The notes: generated from the letters alone by a model not told the origin. DNA of 32,000 bases from Candidatus Hermodarchaeota archaeon (GCA_048886185.1 JBHLKY010000019.1:30001-62000); one strand, 5' to 3'. Counted from the first letter of the stretch, positions 3 to 7,135 are shown. Program-made: numbers and translations.

Positions 3-1073
3 CAGGTAGGAATCCGTAATGGGTTAATAATTATCAGCCGTGAAAATGATGTAGATGAATTAATGAGATCAGAAACTTTTAGCGGGCATAAACCACTAAT
101 AAAGGTAAATGAGCAGAATTTGCAAGGGCTTAATGAGCTAGCAAGTGAACTAGGAATAACTTCTGCTGACTTGGTAAATCAACGGATTTATGGTTATAAT
201 GGCAATCTTAGATTGGGAGAAAAAAGACGCAGAGCTATCATTCGCCGTCAACAAGTAATTGTGTTGAACCTCGATCTCATGAAGATTACTCATTTCCCTG
301 AAAATATCAATGGTGATCAATTCCCAACACTTAGGGGGTTAAGAATGGCTGGTTGTCAGTTGAGGGATGTTGATCTCTCCTCTCTGAGTTTAATCCCATC
401 TTTGGAGAAACTAGTGCTCACAAACAATGAAATTGATGAAATTGAGCTTTCAGCATTATCTAATCTCAAAAAATTGAGTGAATTACATATCGATAGTAAT
501 TTACTTGACCAAATTAACTTAAATCCCTTAAAGGATTTGAAATTGATAGAAACTCTAAATTTAAGTGGCAATGAACTAGAAGAAATTGACTTGAGTCCAT
601 TAAAAGATTTAAATTCCCTGAAGGAACTTTATCTCGATAATAACTATATTGAAAAGATCGATCTTGATCCTTTGAGTCAAAAAACAGGATTATTCCTATC
701 ATTGGAAAATAATCCTCTCCAGGATATCGATCTCGAACCACTATTTAATATTGACAATCTACACCTAGGTCTTCCTAGGGAACTTTCTCATAAAACACTA
801 GAACAAGTGCGAGCTCTCCAAGAAATGGGGGTTCAAATGTCCGTAAAACCACTGAGAAAATTAACTACTGGTGAAATATACAATTTACCATTCGAATTAC
901 AGGATTTAGCAATAACAATGCTCTCTTTAGTAGAGGGTACAGTAGATGAGATAGCTCAAGCTATCGATGTTCCCATAAACGAAGTGTTACCAAAAATTGA
1001 GACTCTTCAAATGATGGGATATATCGGAAAAATACAAAAAGGAGGAGAAACGGTCTATTTTCGATCACAATAG
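3..1073 (+). CDS. Leucine-rich-repeat protein with C-terminal winged helix-turn-helix domain (5'-truncated by window edge)
   Basis: The frame of ORF 63..1073 is open back to position 3 (QVGIRNGLIIISRENDVDELM...), so the true start probably lies outside the window. It has about 7 ~22-aa repeats of the form LxxLxLxxNxLxxIDLxPL and a C-terminal wHTH-like segment (LPFELQDLAITMLSLVEGTVDEIAQAIDVPINEVLPKIETLQMMGYIGKIQKGGETVYF). Confidence 0.85.
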   Translation, partial: QVGIRNGLIIISRENDVDELMRSETFSGHKPLIKVNEQNLQGLNELASELGITSADLVNQRIYGYNGNLRLGEKRRRAIIRRQQVIVLNLDLMKITHFPENINGDQFPTLRGLRMAGCQLRDVDLSSLSLIPSLEKLVLTNNEIDEIELSALSNLKKLSELHIDSNLLDQINLNPLKDLKLIETLNLSGNELEEIDLSPLKDLNSLKELYLDNNYIEKIDLDPLSQKTGLFLSLENNPLQDIDLEPLFNIDNLHLGLPRELSHKTLEQVRALQEMGVQMSVKPLRKLTTGEIYNLPFELQDLAITMLSLVEGTVDEIAQAIDVPINEVLPKIETLQMMGYIGKIQKGGETVYFRSQ

Positions 1074-1168
1074 AACTCCTTTGAATTTTCCTTTAAATGA
1101 ACATTTCACAAAATCAAATCAATAGTATTTTTCAAAAAATTTGTTACGATGAATAAGTCAGAAAGGTC

Positions 1169-2020
1169 ATGAATATGTCTAATAAACCTCTAAAAACATT
1201 ATCCATCATGTCTCACAAAGGAGGCGTGGGAAAAACTTCGATTGCTGTTAATATTGCTGTTTATTTAGCAAAAACAGGAAAAAACGTATGCTTGCTTGAG
1301 AATGATTTTCAAGGTCCTTCTCTGAATACTTGGTGGAAACCTGAAGTTACGTGGATAAACCATTACTTACTAGATAGTGCAAGTATAAATGATTGCCTGC
1401 AAAACATCTCTCCCAAATTGAATCTTCCAGGAAAGCTTCTTGTTGGATTTGCTGATCCTACTCCAGAGTCAATTCAAAGAAATATTCGAATAGATCAGGA
1501 AGATTCTATGAAAATGCTGCAAAATCTTGTAAGAGCTAAAACTACACTTAAAGAAGACCCTTATAAAATTGAATATCTTATCAATGACTGTTCTCCTGGT
1601 ATAGGCTATTCTGCTGTTAATGCAATGATAGCAGCAGATTCTAGTTTGTTTATTGTGAAGTTAAGCAATGCTGATATTATTGGTACTTCTCTAATGATTA
1701 AAGGTTTGTACAAGCAGCTAAAAAAACGAACTCTCGTATTAGCAAACCTAATTCCTAAAGAAGTCGTCAATGATGATGAAAAGAAGAAATTAGCTCAGGA
1801 ATTGGTGGAAAAGGCTTTAGTAGAACCCATTGGGGATTCTACTCACATTTTCCAGTTTACTGGGTGGATACCTACTGATAGCACTTTGATTTCCCTTGAG
1901 TTTGAACAAGCTTTAAAAACACTAAGTGGGGAGGACTCTTCTAGGATTATTTACACACTAGATCAGCCAGAGCATATTTTCTCAACAACACTCATGAAAA
2001 TGATCCCTGTGTTATTCTAA
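1169..2020 (+). CDS. MinD/ParA-family (SIMIBI) P-loop ATPase
   Basis: Deviant Walker A KGGVGKT with signature Lys, switch I LLENDFQGPSL, Walker B-like INDCSPG, and LANLIP near the NxV position. Confidence 0.9.
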   Translation: MNMSNKPLKTLSIMSHKGGVGKTSIAVNIAVYLAKTGKNVCLLENDFQGPSLNTWWKPEVTWINHYLLDSASINDCLQNISPKLNLPGKLLVGFADPTPESIQRNIRIDQEDSMKMLQNLVRAKTTLKEDPYKIEYLINDCSPGIGYSAVNAMIAADSSLFIVKLSNADIIGTSLMIKGLYKQLKKRTLVLANLIPKEVVNDDEKKKLAQELVEKALVEPIGDSTHIFQFTGWIPTDSTLISLEFEQALKTLSGEDSSRIIYTLDQPEHIFSTTLMKMIPVLF

Positions 2021-2023
2021 GAG

Positions 2024-2647
2024 TTATCCAGATTCATGATACGAAGGGATGAAATCCATCCATTTTGGCCTTTGAGTCAATGATTCTGATGACTTACTTA
2101 ATCGTTCTTCTTTGAAATCTTTGATAAAAACGATTATTTGTTTAAAAATGTTCTCCACTAATTCTACATCTTTTGAAGTACATTTAAAAGAGAGTTCACA
2201 CTCAAATCTCCGTGCAAAATTTTCAAGATAGACGTTACGTTCATCAATGGTTGCTATATCATACTTTGTCCCTATCAAAAACCGTGGCACATTCTTATCA
2301 AGAAACTCGATCCATTCAGGGAGTGCATACAATGACCCAATGTCAGTCAGATCAAAACATAGAAGAGCTCCATCAGCTCCCTCACAGAATCTCTTGAAAA
2401 CTACTCTCATGTTCTTGAATTGTTCTTGTCCTCCTAGGTCCCATAATTGTATTTTCGCATCAACCCCAATGCTTATTGAGAAGATCTTGGAGTGAAACTC
2501 GACTGCAATTGTCTGCCTAGCTTCGGAGTAAAACGAGTTATTAACAAAAGTTTTGGCAATGGTTGTTTTTCCCACTCCACCTTCACCCAGAATCACTAAT
2601 TTGAGGGGTTTATTTGGGTTTGACCGAATTGAATTGAAAAATCTCAT
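2024..2647 (-). CDS. Rab-like small GTPase (Ras superfamily)
   Basis: G1 GEGGVGKT, G2 QTIAVEF, G3 WDLGGQ, G4 GTKYD, G5-like CTSK. RabF-like motifs IAVEF, KIQLW and LCFDLT. No C-terminal Cys. Confidence 0.93.
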   Translation of the reverse strand: MRFFNSIRSNPNKPLKLVILGEGGVGKTTIAKTFVNNSFYSEARQTIAVEFHSKIFSISIGVDAKIQLWDLGGQEQFKNMRVVFKRFCEGADGALLCFDLTDIGSLYALPEWIEFLDKNVPRFLIGTKYDIATIDERNVYLENFARRFECELSFKCTSKDVELVENIFKQIIVFIKDFKEERLSKSSESLTQRPKWMDFIPSYHESG

Positions 2648-2672
2648 TACTTCAATACCCTTTCCTATGTTA

Positions 2673-3086
2673 TTAGATCAAACCAGCAAGCTTTTTTGCT
2701 GCTCGTTTCATATCAAGTAGAACCAGCCCTAATTTTGCATTTGTCTTTGCAATTCCTACTAAAACAGCATGTTCTCCTGCGTCACGAATGATTACTAGGC
2801 CATTTGTTCCTGAAATTATTACTTGATCCATTATACCTCGTTCCAATTCAAGCACAATTCGATCAGACAGAGACAGGCTGGCCGCTGTCATTGCACCAAT
2901 TCGATCTTCATCAACAGTAGTGAACAACATACTCGCAATAGATAATCCTTCTTTTGAAACAACAGCTAGTCCTTCTAAATCAGGAACCCGTGATTGGAGT
3001 TCCTGAAGAATTCTTTCAATTACTTGTAAACGACCTATCACATCAGAGTCGTGATTTGCTTCAAGATACATTAGAAATTCTTCCAT
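2673..3086 (-). CDS. Roadblock/LC7 (MglB-like) protein
   Basis: Typical pattern LAVVSKEGLSIAS...EDRIGAMTAASLSLSDRIVLELERGIMDQVIISGTNG...AGEHAVL...AKLGLVLLDMKRAAKKL. Lies 25 bp upstream of the GTPase on the same strand. Confidence 0.93.
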   Translation of the reverse strand: MEEFLMYLEANHDSDVIGRLQVIERILQELQSRVPDLEGLAVVSKEGLSIASMLFTTVDEDRIGAMTAASLSLSDRIVLELERGIMDQVIISGTNGLVIIRDAGEHAVLVGIAKTNAKLGLVLLDMKRAAKKLAGLI

Positions 3087-3201: not shown

Positions 3202-3741
3202 TTACTCTGAATCGGGGACTTTCAATCGTTCCCCGAGAGTGTAATAATTATAATCGCCTCCAATAGCCCAGATTATTGGATGTACTTTCCTTAGATCAAG
3301 CTTACCATCTGTAAGACTCTGTGGGTCTGCATATGATTTGATGACTCTTCCGATAATTCCCTCATTCCGCTCATAGTCGAGGATCTCCTTTACTTGACAT
3401 TCCATATTGATAGGACACTGACGAATCATGGGTGCGGTTTCTAATTCTCCGTAAAATGTATCAAAGAGCGAATCTTTATCATAATCTCTCCCAGATTTAC
3501 TTCCACAGATGTTAGTTTCAGCTAAAAGATCTACTGATGGAATATTTACACTAAATGTATTATTCTCGTGAATCCCAATTCTGGTATATCTTTTCTTGTA
3601 TAAGCTGAAGAAAATATACTTGCCAAAGTCAAATGGTGAAATATATCCTATAACTAAGTAGTTTGGTCGGCCATTGACTAAGGCGCCAACTAGCACGACT
3701 GGCAACGGACTCAACAAATTCCCTTTAAGTTCCTGCTTCAT
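3202..3741 (-). CDS. Flavin reductase-like / flavoredoxin family protein
   Basis: PLPVVLVG, FSVNIP, CGSKSGRDYDK and APMIRQCPINMECQV motifs of the FMN-binding split-barrel family. Confidence 0.85.
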   Translation of the reverse strand: MKQELKGNLLSPLPVVLVGALVNGRPNYLVIGYISPFDFGKYIFFSLYKKRYTRIGIHENNTFSVNIPSVDLLAETNICGSKSGRDYDKDSLFDTFYGELETAPMIRQCPINMECQVKEILDYERNEGIIGRVIKSYADPQSLTDGKLDLRKVHPIIWAIGGDYNYYTLGERLKVPDSE

Positions 3742-4105: not shown

Positions 4106-7100
4106 ATGGAAGTGAAAAAAATGAAGCTAAGAAGATTTTTCTTGACATTACTAATACTCCTGTTTTTATTTGGTATGAATTATTGGGATAGAGGACAAGA
4201 GTTTCAATCTCATGGTTTTGATTCACAAGAGTTTGATATCCAACTCTTCACACAACAACCTTCTAGAACCAAAGTTACTAAGATTAATGCCCCCATTAAT
4301 GTTGCATGTGTTTTTGCAATAGGTGGTCTTGGAGATTTAGGATTTAACGATATGGTTTATAGAGGTTTACAAAAAGCTGAGACTGATGGATTGTGTACCT
4401 TTACTTATTCAGAACCAAGTAATTTAGGTCAAATCCAAGGTTTTTTGGAAGGGTATGCTAGTTCCGGAAGTTATGATTTGATTGTAGCTGTTGGATTTGC
4501 GCAGAAAACCGCTGTAAATGAAACTGCAAAGGTGTATCCTACTCAAGCGATCGTTTTAATTGACGATATTGTTGAACAAGGGAATGTACGTTCAGTACTA
4601 TTTAAGGAGAACGAGGGATCATTCCTTGTTGGAGCCCTTGCTGGTCTAATGACCAACACAGGTAGAATTGGATTTCTAGGGGGAATGGACATTGAATTAA
4701 TTCGTAGATTTTGGGCCGGATATACTGCTGGAGCCATGTTTGTAAATAATAATAGCTGCATAGAAGTTATCGAAAACTTCGTTGGGTCATTCAATGATCC
4801 AACCACAGGTAAATCAATGGCTGAAGCTATGTGGAATGAAAGCGCTGACATTGTTTTTGCTGCTGCAGGAGAGAGTGGAACTGGTGCCCTAGAGTCAGTC
4901 AGTGAACAGGGAGAAGGATATTATGGCATTGGTATTGATGTCGATCAGGATTTTCTTTTTCCTGGAGATATTCTCTGTTCTATGATGAAAAGAATGGATA
5001 TTGCGGTTTACAAATCAATTAGAGATGTTTTTGAAGGTAGGTGGAGTTCTGATCCCCAATTATTAGGATTAGCTGATGATGGTGTGGGAATTAGCCCATT
5101 AGTGTACACCAAAGAAAAAATTGGTTCTGATTTCATTCAAGAAGTCAATGTCACTCTTCGAAATAAGATTATTAGTGGAGAAATTGTTGTTCCTATTAAT
5201 CATAGTACTTTGAGTCAATGGATAATGGATATGGGTATTAAGAATAAGACTTACTCTCCTCATGGGCCAATTTGGATTAGTTCAAGTGATCAATTTGGTA
5301 CCATGGGATTTAATGGTTCCGGTAGTATCAGTGATCCTTATGTGATTGAAGGATTATACATTAATGACTCAAGTGGACCTTTAATCGGGATAGATGGGAT
5401 AACTGATCATTTTCTGATCACGAATAATCTCTTAAATGGCTTAGATACAACAGGTCAAGGAATCTCTTTAACTTATTGTCAGAATGGTTTGATAACTGAC
5501 AACACCATTATCAGAACAAATGACGGAATCAGGCTTGATTACTCTGATTTTAACACCGTTACCGATAATGTCGTTTTTAACAACAGTTATGGCATTATGA
5601 TTGATAGTTCCTCCGATAGCAATACAATTTCATACAATACCCTTTTTCATAACAGACACGATGGTATTGCAGTGGGAGGCGCTGGAGGGTCTCATATGAA
5701 TACCATTTCTCACAATACCCTGTATAATAATGTTGATACTGGAATGTGGCTTTCAGATTCTACTGACAATCTCGTCCTTGCCAATGAAATTTTTGATAAT
5801 GGAAATGGAATAATACTTGGGGCTTCGAATCTCAACGTTATCGTGGCAAACAACATTTCCAAGAGTACTTGGAGTGGAATTCTTATTGGCGATTCGTCAA
5901 ATAGTAGCCTTATCCTGGAAAATAGGATTTTTAGGAATGGATACAATGGAATTCAAGTTGTAGGAAGTTCCTTTAATACAGAAATTGCCCTTAATACAAT
6001 ATATGATAACCTAGGTTGGGCGGGTATTGAACTTGGATCTTCTATCGGAGGTATTGTGGATGGTAATATTATCTATAATCATCCGAATGGAAACGGAGTT
6101 ACTCTTGGTTATTGGGACATGGTACTAGATTGGAGCGATTATCAGGTTATTAATAATGTGATTTTCAACAGCAGGTACCGAGGTATCCGTATTGAATTCT
6201 CTAACGGGAATTTAATTGAAGGAAATACCGCTCTTAATAATCAAGAGGAAGGAATATGGGCAGCCATGTCAACTGATTTAATTATCATAAGTAACATTGT
6301 AGAAAATAACCTTTGGAATGGTATTGGGCTAGAATCCAGCGCTAATTGCCTGATCGAGAATAATAACATCTCTAATAATATCCAATATGCGGTTATTCTT
6401 AGCCAATGTGGGTCTATTGAGATTTATAGAAATAATTTCATTGGAAATGGGGCAGGAAACATCCCTGCAGGTAGTCCTCAGGTTTTAAACGATGAAGGAT
6501 CAAATAATGCCTTTATGTTTAACTATTGGGATGACTGGACCAGTCCTGATAGCGATTTTGATGGTTATGTGGATAATCCATATTTTGTTGATGGAAGTGG
6601 TCGGGATTCTTATCCCCTTGCTACTTGGAATCCTCCCCTAAGTCATCTTATATCCAATCCGACAGTCTTACATCCTAGTGGTGGTGAGACAATTAGAGGT
6701 ATCGTAACCATTCGATGGGCAGCTTCAGTGGATTATTTCACTGACGACATTACCTACTCCGTATTTTACTCAGATGATGGAGGAACTGGATGGTCAATGA
6801 TAGCTTCAGGTTTAGAAACAACATCCTATCTCTGGGATACCAACGATGTTCTTGATAGTGCGTTCTATAAGATCAAAGTATTAGCAACTTGTTCCTTAGA
6901 GTATTCAAATGAAAATATTGGAGATCTTTTTTCTATCCAAAATGATGTTCCAATCACAACAATCCCTTCCTCAACAACAACTATTGCTGTTCCGCTTACA
7001 ACCACTACTGGGGTTCTAGAACCTACCACTTCAGCAGAGGTCCCCACAGTACCTACATCTGGAATGACTGGAATCATTGCTTTCTTAGGGATTTTCTCTG

Positions 7101-7135
7101 TACTTTTGTGGAAGAAAAAGAAACCGAAACTTTAA
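4106..7135 (+). CDS. Cell-surface fusion protein: BMP/PnrA-type solute-binding domain + CASH/NosD right-handed beta-helix + Ig/FnIII-like domain + Thr-rich linker + C-terminal TM anchor
   Basis: N-terminal signal peptide; BMP motifs GGLGDLGFN, FKENEGSFLVGALAG, IGFLGGM, GSFNDPTTGK, GIDVDQD and SMMKRMDIAV; many NxIxxNxxxGI beta-helix repeats; NYWDDW...DGYVDNPY...DSYPL; SVFYSDDGGTGW; TTT-rich linker; hydrophobic helix followed by KKKK. Confidence 0.88.
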   Translation: MEVKKMKLRRFFLTLLILLFLFGMNYWDRGQEFQSHGFDSQEFDIQLFTQQPSRTKVTKINAPINVACVFAIGGLGDLGFNDMVYRGLQKAETDGLCTFTYSEPSNLGQIQGFLEGYASSGSYDLIVAVGFAQKTAVNETAKVYPTQAIVLIDDIVEQGNVRSVLFKENEGSFLVGALAGLMTNTGRIGFLGGMDIELIRRFWAGYTAGAMFVNNNSCIEVIENFVGSFNDPTTGKSMAEAMWNESADIVFAAAGESGTGALESVSEQGEGYYGIGIDVDQDFLFPGDILCSMMKRMDIAVYKSIRDVFEGRWSSDPQLLGLADDGVGISPLVYTKEKIGSDFIQEVNVTLRNKIISGEIVVPINHSTLSQWIMDMGIKNKTYSPHGPIWISSSDQFGTMGFNGSGSISDPYVIEGLYINDSSGPLIGIDGITDHFLITNNLLNGLDTTGQGISLTYCQNGLITDNTIIRTNDGIRLDYSDFNTVTDNVVFNNSYGIMIDSSSDSNTISYNTLFHNRHDGIAVGGAGGSHMNTISHNTLYNNVDTGMWLSDSTDNLVLANEIFDNGNGIILGASNLNVIVANNISKSTWSGILIGDSSNSSLILENRIFRNGYNGIQVVGSSFNTEIALNTIYDNLGWAGIELGSSIGGIVDGNIIYNHPNGNGVTLGYWDMVLDWSDYQVINNVIFNSRYRGIRIEFSNGNLIEGNTALNNQEEGIWAAMSTDLIIISNIVENNLWNGIGLESSANCLIENNNISNNIQYAVILSQCGSIEIYRNNFIGNGAGNIPAGSPQVLNDEGSNNAFMFNYWDDWTSPDSDFDGYVDNPYFVDGSGRDSYPLATWNPPLSHLISNPTVLHPSGGETIRGIVTIRWAASVDYFTDDITYSVFYSDDGGTGWSMIASGLETTSYLWDTNDVLDSAFYKIKVLATCSLEYSNENIGDLFSIQNDVPITTIPSSTTTIAVPLTTTTGVLEPTTSAEVPTVPTSGMTGIIAFLGIFSVLLWKKKKPKL

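Follow-up and report, generated by a model that had tools for sequence, protein, structure and literature searches.

Tail-to-tail ATPase–adaptor and Roadblock–GTPase gene pairs at a Hodarchaeales locus

Four genes meeting tail to tail

We analysed a stretch of 32,000 nucleotides (G000:C19:30001-62000, referred to here as the window) from an archaeal assembly of 4.84 Mb in 75 contigs. The subject is the group of four genes at its beginning. A gene for a leucine-rich repeat (LRR) protein with a winged helix-turn-helix (wHTH) tail and a gene for a ParA/MinD-like ATPase lie on one strand, and converge on genes for a Roadblock protein and a Ras/Rab-like small GTPase on the other. Judged from the names of homologues of the LRR protein and of the ATPase family, the source organism is a member of the Hodarchaeales (Heimdallarchaeia), the archaea held closest to eukaryotes. 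A preliminary description of the same DNA had delimited these four genes and proposed that they form one coupled system. Open reading frame (ORF) calls and the sequence itself agree with its gene boundaries and with the 3 bp that it placed between the convergent stop codons, and the LRR, deviant-Walker-A ATPase, GTPase and Roadblock identities were recovered with Pfam. The features, in window coordinates, are as follows.

1-1073 (ORF from 3), plus strand: adaptor gene with AbrB-like domain, LRR and wHTH, from ORF call, Pfam LRR, AlphaFold2 (AF2) and homologues; the 5' end lies beyond the window edge
267-779, plus strand: LRR solenoid, approximately residues 130-300 of the full protein, from Pfam LRR_8/LRR_4 and an AF2 predicted local distance difference test (pLDDT) value >90
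825-1070, plus strand: conserved tail, a Lys/Arg-rich linker (motif at about 840-890) followed by a winged helix, from alignment A2, tblastn and hidden Markov model (HMM) matches
1169-2020, plus strand: ParA/MinD-like (SIMIBI) ATPase, from Pfam; Walker A at 1211-1237; translation may begin at the ATG at 1175
2024-2647, minus strand: Ras/Rab-like small GTPase, from Pfam Ras (98.8 bits), the G1 motif GEGGVGKT at 2564-2587, and orthologues
2673-3086, minus strand: Roadblock/LC7 protein, encoded at the head of its operon with the GTPase, from Pfam Robl_LC7 (55 bits); 25-bp gap to the GTPase gene

The ATPase gene terminates with TAA at 2018-2020 and the GTPase stop codon, on the reverse strand, occupies 2024-2026, leaving the three base pairs GAG between them. 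Close orthologues of all four genes were found elsewhere, and the four ORFs are therefore real genes and not chance occurrences. Ras-family genes are plentiful in this assembly, with 67 Pfam matches (about 62 above cut-off) among approximately 4,500 genes, and there are 12 Roadblock matches; such numbers are typical of Asgard archaea. Scans with Rfam and for tRNAs revealed no RNA families and no tRNAs in the 18 kb around the locus, which therefore has no tRNA-flanked island signature.

The preliminary description had suggested looking for the N-terminus of the LRR protein in the upstream contig. The start codon lies 114-120 nt before the window (G000:C19:29880/29886), giving a protein of 395-397 residues, and the added segment encodes an AbrB/MazE-like domain. 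Pfam scores for the LRRs were 54 and 50 bits (LRR_4/LRR_8), while the wHTH tail gave a weak match (TrmB, E 0.04). An AF2 model built with 10 homologues (pLDDT 83) consists of four parts in order: an N-terminal β-β-α-β-β unit modelled with lower confidence, a linker with a small cap, the LRR solenoid (pLDDT >90, Z 18 to LRR receptors), and a helix (residues 304-315) followed by a winged helix. A fold search with the winged helix gave Z ~10 to TFE-alpha/MarR, in agreement with the wHTH tail described earlier. A profile of the first 60 residues, compared with the PDB, matched only AbrB/MazE/SpoVT chains (best E 0.009), and one homologue of the protein matches Pfam MazE_antitoxin (E 2.5e-5). From the modelled parts, the N-terminal profile and this last match, we therefore assign the architecture AbrB-like domain, LRR, wHTH. 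Nine full-length homologues, 54-82% identical, were found, and all are named as Hodarchaeales.

The ATPase matches AAA_31, ParA and CbiA in Pfam with 62, 49 and 48 bits, and carries the deviant Walker A motif SHKGGVGKTS. Among 28 members of the family, there is no variation at S15, G18, G19, G21, K22, D46 or D140 and almost none at K17, and on these residues the enzyme is predicted to be catalytically intact. The GTPase likewise has intact G1 (GEGGVGKT), G3 (DLGGQ) and G4 (TKYD) motifs and the catalytic Gln. Among solved structures it is most similar to Rab43, Rab4, Rab33 and Rab11, with scores of about 78 bits (best E 4e-21), and almost all of the top 60 PDB matches listed are Rab or Ypt proteins. 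The term 'Rab-like' used previously is thus fair as a statement of similarity, though the protein ends in ...PSYHESG, without a C-terminal Cys prenylation motif. For the Roadblock protein, the best PDB relatives are the Asgard Roadblocks 9jue and 7f8m, then CvnB5 (E 5e-9); MglB matches weakly (E 0.002-0.003).

Two conserved gene pairs and an unshared junction

The ATPase was searched for in 24 genomes of the order (the source assembly included) and in 400 of the phylum, and neighbouring genes were mapped at 33 related loci. The family comprises about 130 clusters, nearly all from Hodarchaeales/Heimdall. Orthologues with 48-66% identity are present in 15 of the 21 genus genomes and in other Asgard families, with one to three copies per genome where present; the family was not found in the other six genus genomes. 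At 26 of the 33 related loci, a gene encoding the wHTH tail adjoins the ATPase gene, and several loci have two. At 25 of the 33, the neighbour is a gene of about 210 codons for a longin-wHTH protein, nearly always the next gene downstream in the same orientation, and often overlapping the ATPase gene. In this longin-type partner, the last 80 residues are homologous to the tail of the window LRR protein. Both share the wHTH core and the motif S-[VI]-K-P-x-[KR]-K-L-x-T-G-E-I-[FY]-x-L-P, which reads S-V-K-P-L-R-K-L-T-T-G-E-I-Y-x-L-P in the window protein; the two kinds of tail are 20-40% identical in alignment A2, and tblastn and HMM matches to the tail adjoin ATPase orthologues. One longin-type partner, modelled with AF2 from 27 sequences (pLDDT 81), has the topology β-β-α-β-β-β-α, and its N-terminal domain resembles the longin domains of VAMP7, Sec22, TRAPP, AP σ/μ and SRX (Z 12.8, Foldseek E down to 2e-5); its C-terminal domain gave winged-helix matches (Z ~10).

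LRR-type partners occur in four distinct contexts besides the window, five in total, and the ATPase gene lies directly downstream of the LRR gene in all of them. The gene that follows the ATPase differs in every case (luciferase-like, LVIVD, a second ATPase, or a gene without an assigned family). The pairing of the LRR-wHTH protein with the MinD-like ATPase, which the preliminary description had suggested, is thus found in five independent contexts, with a tail homologous to the partners of related ATPases, and the AbrB-LRR-wHTH protein is probably a dedicated partner of the ATPase.

In a maximum-likelihood tree of 43 ATPases, the LRR-linked enzymes form one clade, with a Shimodaira–Hasegawa-like approximate likelihood ratio test (SH-aLRT) value of 99, nested among longin-linked ATPases. 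A second clade (SH-aLRT 100), also nested among the longin-linked enzymes, consists of four ATPases that are fused to a Roc GTPase. The nesting of both clades therefore indicates an ancestral longin partner, whose domain was later replaced by AbrB-LRR while the tail remained constant. The fusion proteins (L041-L044; genomes G007, G006, G016 and G001; proteins P0232-P0236) are about 900 residues long, and their Roc part is followed by a weak COR-A-like match (15.7 bits versus a cut-off of 35.3) and a C-terminal DUF4145. They were found in four genus genomes and five database clusters, only in Hodarchaeota, and are encoded without a wHTH partner gene. Among 5.8 billion proteins, ParA-Roc-DUF4145 was the only longer fused form of the ATPase, and there was no ATPase-LRR or ATPase-wHTH fusion of the sub-family.

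A paralogous protein of 567 residues in the source assembly joins both components: its first 255 residues align to the ATPase family (hhalign 94%, E 9e-8) and residues 271-561 to the longin-wHTH family (hhalign 97%, E 1e-10). Because its parts stand in operon order, a Rosetta-stone argument suggests that ATPase and adaptor work together. A complex prediction for the ATPase (alignment A3) and the adaptor tail (alignment A2) returned a score of 0.02 and a mark of 0.32, without controls, and speaks neither for nor against binding.

Two further arrangements of ATPase and wHTH genes were observed. At L054 (G005:C173), a 235-residue wHTH-tail protein, with an N-terminal domain that lacks an assignment and is different from the longin form, is encoded upstream of an ATPase gene that converges on a gene for an Arf-like GTPase; the match to this ATPase was reported to contain a TAG in frame. 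A second ParA-like and wHTH pair of the source assembly lies at G000:C2:93093-94555, with the partner encoded upstream. This partner, of 209 residues, begins with a long helix, which is followed by a wHTH, and ends in an acidic tail. All nine of the loci examined within the order keep the pair; its ATPase is highly conserved and its partner is fast-diverging.

Orthologues of the GTPase were found in nine genomes with 61-88% identity. In seven of these (GTPase 71-88%), the GTPase gene is preceded, at a distance of 8-27 bp, by a Roadblock orthologue of 82-89% identity; an eighth genome has a more distant pair (GTPase 64%, Roadblock 60%); and the ninth (GTPase 61%) has a contig end close before its GTPase gene, so that the preceding gene lies outside view. 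The treatment of Roadblock and GTPase as a unit in the preliminary description accordingly stands, with an orthologous operon in eight other genomes, and the two genes constitute a conserved operon of the MglB/MglA kind. According to Tran et al. (2024, PMC10933270), Prometheoarchaeum MK-D1 does not as a rule keep its small GTPase genes in operons with Roadblock genes; given this contrast, the tight and conserved operon is a useful matched pair, although of a known kind.

Paralogues of both proteins occur elsewhere in the source assembly. A GTPase paralogue (57-59% identity) at G000:C3:145888-147680 heads a trio in the order GTPase, KaiC-like ATPase (249 residues) and weakly Roadblock-like protein (157 residues), which is kept in most genus genomes beside a gene for a protein of 188 residues. 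A Roadblock paralogue, 72% identical, at G000:C5:23742-24131 is solitary, with no GTPase gene nearby. Within the window, a flavin-reductase-like gene (3202-3741, minus strand) lies directly upstream of the Roadblock operon, and next to it is a gene for a 1009-residue protein with a Bmp/PnrA-type domain (4106-7135, plus strand).

Each pair is thus conserved, but the meeting of the two is not. The four-gene arrangement, whose lack of conservation in related genomes the preliminary description had named among the grounds for refuting its proposal, is absent from the 33 related ATPase loci, the four other LRR-type contexts and the eight other Roadblock–GTPase loci (nine GTPase-orthologue loci were examined), and at none of the 33 related loci does an orthologue of the window GTPase or Roadblock stand beside the ATPase. 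G011, a complete genome, has its ATPase gene at 0.93 Mb and its Roadblock–GTPase operon 110 kb away, at 1.04 Mb. In the seven genomes with the close Roadblock–GTPase pair, a gene for a protein of 415-462 residues follows the GTPase on the same strand (a major facilitator superfamily, MFS, transporter by Pfam in the one checked), and one relative that was checked shares with the window a divergent Bmp-domain gene on the upstream side of the operon. With the Roadblock side kept and an MFS gene following the GTPase in relatives, synteny therefore breaks exactly at the 3-bp junction. We conclude that the region is, with fair probability, two independent transcription units that lie tail to tail only in this genome, and not a conserved four-gene system. 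This judgement applies to the explanation as a whole, that is, to the readings of the ATPase–adaptor unit and of the Roadblock–GTPase unit taken together.

The AbiEii-linked region and the proposed working of the two units

Upstream of the LRR gene, just outside the window, lie a divergent gene and a set of repeated boxes.

C19:28531-29385 (L004:10531-11385), minus strand: AbiEii-type nucleotidyltransferase, Pfam 84.6 bits and PADLOC 132.8 bits
G000:C19:29404-29840 (L004:11404-11840): six palindromic TGTWWWACA boxes, three at each end of the 495-bp intergenic region, partly with 13-bp spacing

An AbiEii gene is divergently placed upstream in most LRR-type contexts; it is missing from L069 and L070 and lies 4 kb away in L068. 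The 495-bp region between the AbiEii and LRR genes contains no other ORF of at least 80 codons (no AbiEi family search was made). Its six boxes, partly arranged as TGTATAACA-N4-TGTATAACA, compare with 0.8 expected in 18 kb. The tandem boxes in front of the LRR gene are kept in L068, L069 and L072-74, have diverged in L071 and L075, and are absent from the corresponding regions of longin-type loci. This pattern of conservation points to the AbrB-like domain as the putative binder.

Some longin-type pairs behave as a cassette. In six to seven relatives, such a pair lies directly after an operon encoding HerA, Mre11, Rad50 and an MrfA-like helicase: in L038-L040 it stands between the helicase operon and a gene for a protein of about 1250 residues, and in L035-L037 and L047 it directly follows the same operon. 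In the source assembly (G000:C26:34978-35308), just 330 bp separate the helicase gene from the 1250-residue gene and no pair intervenes, a cassette-like pattern of presence and absence.

From these data we infer that the tail may bind the ATPase and control its activity, that the adaptor may bind DNA, and that the pair may serve in defence. The AbrB-LRR-wHTH and ATPase genes would constitute a lineage-specific variant of an Asgard two-gene ATPase–adaptor switch. In the LRR clade, the ancestral longin fold at the N-terminus of the partner would have been swapped for an AbrB-like DNA-binding or dimerising domain together with the LRR solenoid. The ATP-bound ATPase would dimerise on a surface, either DNA or membrane, and the linker/wHTH tail of the adaptor would dock on it and control the ATPase cycle. 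The LRRs could provide a ligand- or protein-sensing surface, and the AbrB-like domain is expected to bind the TGTWWWACA boxes in the promoter region that is common to the divergent AbiEii gene. The Roadblock–GTPase unit, which is conserved in the genus with other neighbours, would operate as an MglB/MglA-type switch, with the Roadblock dimer serving as a platform of the GTPase-activating protein (GAP) or guanine nucleotide exchange factor (GEF) type.

On this proposal the ATPase–adaptor cassette is an accessory element, probably related to conflict or defence, a view that we hold tentatively and with slightly more doubt than belief. Several observations weigh against it. PADLOC assigned no defence family to the adaptor or the Roadblock protein, and its matches to the ATPase, GTPase and Roc fusion were weak and at the level of the P-loop; there is no effector of nuclease type; and both the position of some longin-type pairs at the helicase operon and the housekeeping appearance of the simpler helix-wHTH and ParA pair, found at nine of nine loci, fit a housekeeping DNA role as well as they fit defence. 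Confidence in a defence role is therefore kept just below even, and some weight is given to a cellular role. In that alternative, the unit would be a DNA-segregation or cargo-positioning pair of the ParA–ParB, SegA–SegB or AspA–ParB–ParA kind, unrelated to conflict, with the wHTH on a centromere-like site, the linker stimulating the ATPase and the N-terminal domain, longin or LRR, tethering cargo. We regard such a role as doubtful. The intact deviant-Walker-A ATPase with its DNA-binding-type partner, the helicase neighbourhood in six to seven genomes and the order-wide helix-wHTH pair with its highly conserved ATPase speak for it, but the sub-family is patchy, with cassette-like presence and absence and one to three copies per genome, the N-terminal domain of the partner is swapped between clades, AbiEii is linked through shared operator-like boxes, and NCBIfam models for partition ATPases and MinD score far below their cut-offs (50 versus 180 and 46 versus 202). 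The linkage itself allows another interpretation, in which the AbrB-LRR-wHTH protein is chiefly an antitoxin or regulator of the divergent AbiEii, together a non-canonical AbiE pair, and the ATPase is a passenger. AbiEii is strongly identified, no AbiEi-type gene was noted among the adjacent ORFs (as said, no search aimed at that family was made), the N-terminal domain is AbrB/MazE-like and boxes stand at both promoters. Against this, the ATPase gene always follows the LRR gene whereas AbiEii is missing or distant in L068-L070, L069 retains the boxes in the absence of AbiEii, and the tail has homologues among the partners of ATPases with no AbiEii nearby; we consider this interpretation unlikely.

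A single four-gene system, as originally proposed, would couple the MinD-like and Rab-like switches, with the LRR-wHTH protein as adaptor, the Roadblock protein as regulator of the GTPase, and co-regulation through overlapping 3' ends. The narrow spacing of the stop codons and the fusion of the ATPase family to a Roc GTPase are in keeping with such coupling, as is the order at L054, where an adaptor and an ATPase gene again face a GTPase gene. However, the arrangement is unique to the source genome and the orthologous pairs are far apart in G011; the GTPase at L054 is no orthologue but an Arf-like one; that of the fusions is a Roc, unlike the window GTPase; the Roadblock-side genes resemble those of relatives up to the break in synteny; and one or two chance ATPase–GTPase adjacencies are expected among about 38 loci, given the frequency of Ras-family genes in the assembly (about 62 in about 4,500). 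We therefore judge it quite unlikely that the four genes work as one system. A counterpart containing all of the component kinds does, however, exist at another locus of the same assembly, outside the window.

G000:C6:103379-108696 (L107:2379-7696): cluster in the order fusion protein, Rab-like GTPase, Roadblock, Roadblock, Yip1/Zn-ribbon protein

The fusion protein is the 567-residue paralogue described above, a degenerate MinD-fold-longin-wHTH protein with the Walker A sequence SRTPSCGKKT. The GTPase scores 165 bits with Ras, the Roadblocks are Roadblock/LAMTOR5-like, and one ORF of 149 codons on the opposite strand interrupts the cluster. Fusion and GTPase occur together at 17 of 19 genus loci, and the wider cluster was recovered at all seven loci sampled, although Yip1 went undetected at one of them. 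This conserved cluster thus unites all four component kinds, but at a different locus and through different paralogues. The theme of coupling raised in the preliminary description found no support at the window junction, but reappears elsewhere in this cluster and in the ParA-Roc fusions of four relatives. These two observations argue against full independence of the two units. The cluster raises the prior for the functional theme without rescuing the window junction, because that junction is unique. It is conceivable that Hodarchaeales MinD/ParA ATPases with longin- or LRR-bearing wHTH adaptors form a regulatory layer with small GTPases, and that the ATPase pair of the window communicates with the Roadblock–GTPase pair; the C6 cluster, the ParA-Roc fusions, the split of LRR and Roc between sister clades and the window junction would then be faces of one circuit. 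We consider this extension improbable.

Comparison with known systems

If the explanation by two units is correct, a supposed four-gene 'Asgard polarity system' is replaced by two well-delimited units, of which the ATPase–adaptor pair offers a compact and testable means of studying the working of little-studied archaeal ParA-like switches. The adaptors suggest modular exchange of a sensor domain (longin, AbrB-LRR or Roc fusion) on a constant ATPase-docking tail, and link an ATPase of the SIMIBI class with longin domains, a fold that serves TRAFAC GTPases in eukaryotes. Should the AbiEii link be functional, the cassette would be an archaeal defence or toxin-control element. For coupling between a MinD-type ATPase and a Rab-like GTPase, the C6 cluster may be the better place to look.

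The Roadblock–GTPase module is an ordinary member of the MglB/MglA-like kind. Like MglA–MglB of Myxococcus and Thermus and the Asgard Roadblocks 9jue and 7f8m, it has a Roadblock/LC7 gene in one operon with a Ras-superfamily GTPase gene; it differs in that the window GTPase is closer to Rabs than to MglA, and the match of its Roadblock to MglB is weak. Actinobacterial conservons (CvnA-D), single operons for a sensor kinase (CvnA), a Roadblock (CvnB), a DUF742 protein (CvnC) and a GTPase (CvnD), also have Roadblock, wHTH-type and small-GTPase components near each other, and CvnB5 is a relative of the Roadblock protein. The conservon analogy drawn in the preliminary description was nevertheless abandoned: there is no CvnA sensor kinase and no DUF742 match, the genes form two convergent units, and the arrangement is not conserved. 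Resemblance to ROCO proteins (LRR-Roc-COR; LRRK2 and bacterial Roco) lies in one ATPase clade having an LRR partner, the neighbouring clade being fused to Roc, and the weak COR-A match, but LRR and Roc never occur here in one locus or protein, the COR match is below cut-off (15.7 versus 35.3 bits), and the window GTPase is not a Roc. To AbiE, a type IV toxin–antitoxin or abortive-infection system, the likeness consists of the AbiEii nucleotidyltransferase just upstream of the window.

With partition and positioning pairs (MinD–MinE, ParA–ParB, SegA–SegB and the pNOB8 AspA–ParB–ParA system) the ATPase–adaptor pair has in common a deviant-Walker-A SIMIBI ATPase and a dedicated partner, which probably combines a basic ATPase-contacting segment with a DNA-binding fold. 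It differs from them in having no MinE, MinC or ParB, and in a partner architecture (longin or AbrB-LRR, plus wHTH) unlike theirs. Identification of the ATPase as MinD was rejected (TIGR01969, 45.9 versus 201.75; TIGR01968, 44.5 versus 212.9; no adjacent MinE or MinC gene). By eye, its C-terminus (...TTLMKMIPVLF) is hydrophobic and not a basic-amphipathic membrane helix as in MinD. Identification as a ParA partition ATPase was also rejected (NF041546, 50.2 versus 180; the AbrB-LRR-wHTH partner has no ParB domain).

The closest comparison is with the ParA-wHTH systems, a computational prediction, mostly from archaea (Li, Burroughs & Aravind, Oct 2026 preprint, bioRxiv 10.64898/2026.10.19.760177). 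In these, a ParA gene is coupled to at least one fast-evolving wHTH gene with an N-terminal helix, some fused to a profilin-longin-like domain; the systems are predicted to be immune systems that intercept invading DNA, and one assemblage, ConB2, is distinguished by an Arg where the second Walker A Lys would otherwise stand (KGGVGR) (10.64898/2026.10.19.760177). The present module agrees with them in its ParA-clade ATPase with an adjoining wHTH gene (26 of 33 loci and the five LRR-type contexts), in its two-component core of sensor and ATPase, in the helix before the wHTH (residues 304-315 in the window protein, and the minimal form at C2), and in the longin fold of relatives (Z 12.8). It departs from them, and here the comparison tells against our assignment, in that K22 is invariant in 28 members and the NCBIfam model for the KGGVGR variant scores 40.9 against a cut-off of 90; moreover, the window partner is an AbrB-LRR-wHTH protein, is encoded upstream of the ATPase, and is linked to AbiEii. 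The preprint mentions no LRR, AbrB, Roc or Asgard forms (10.64898/2026.10.19.760177). The ATPase–adaptor module is an AbrB-LRR variant of this recently predicted kind, and its AbrB-LRR form is new.

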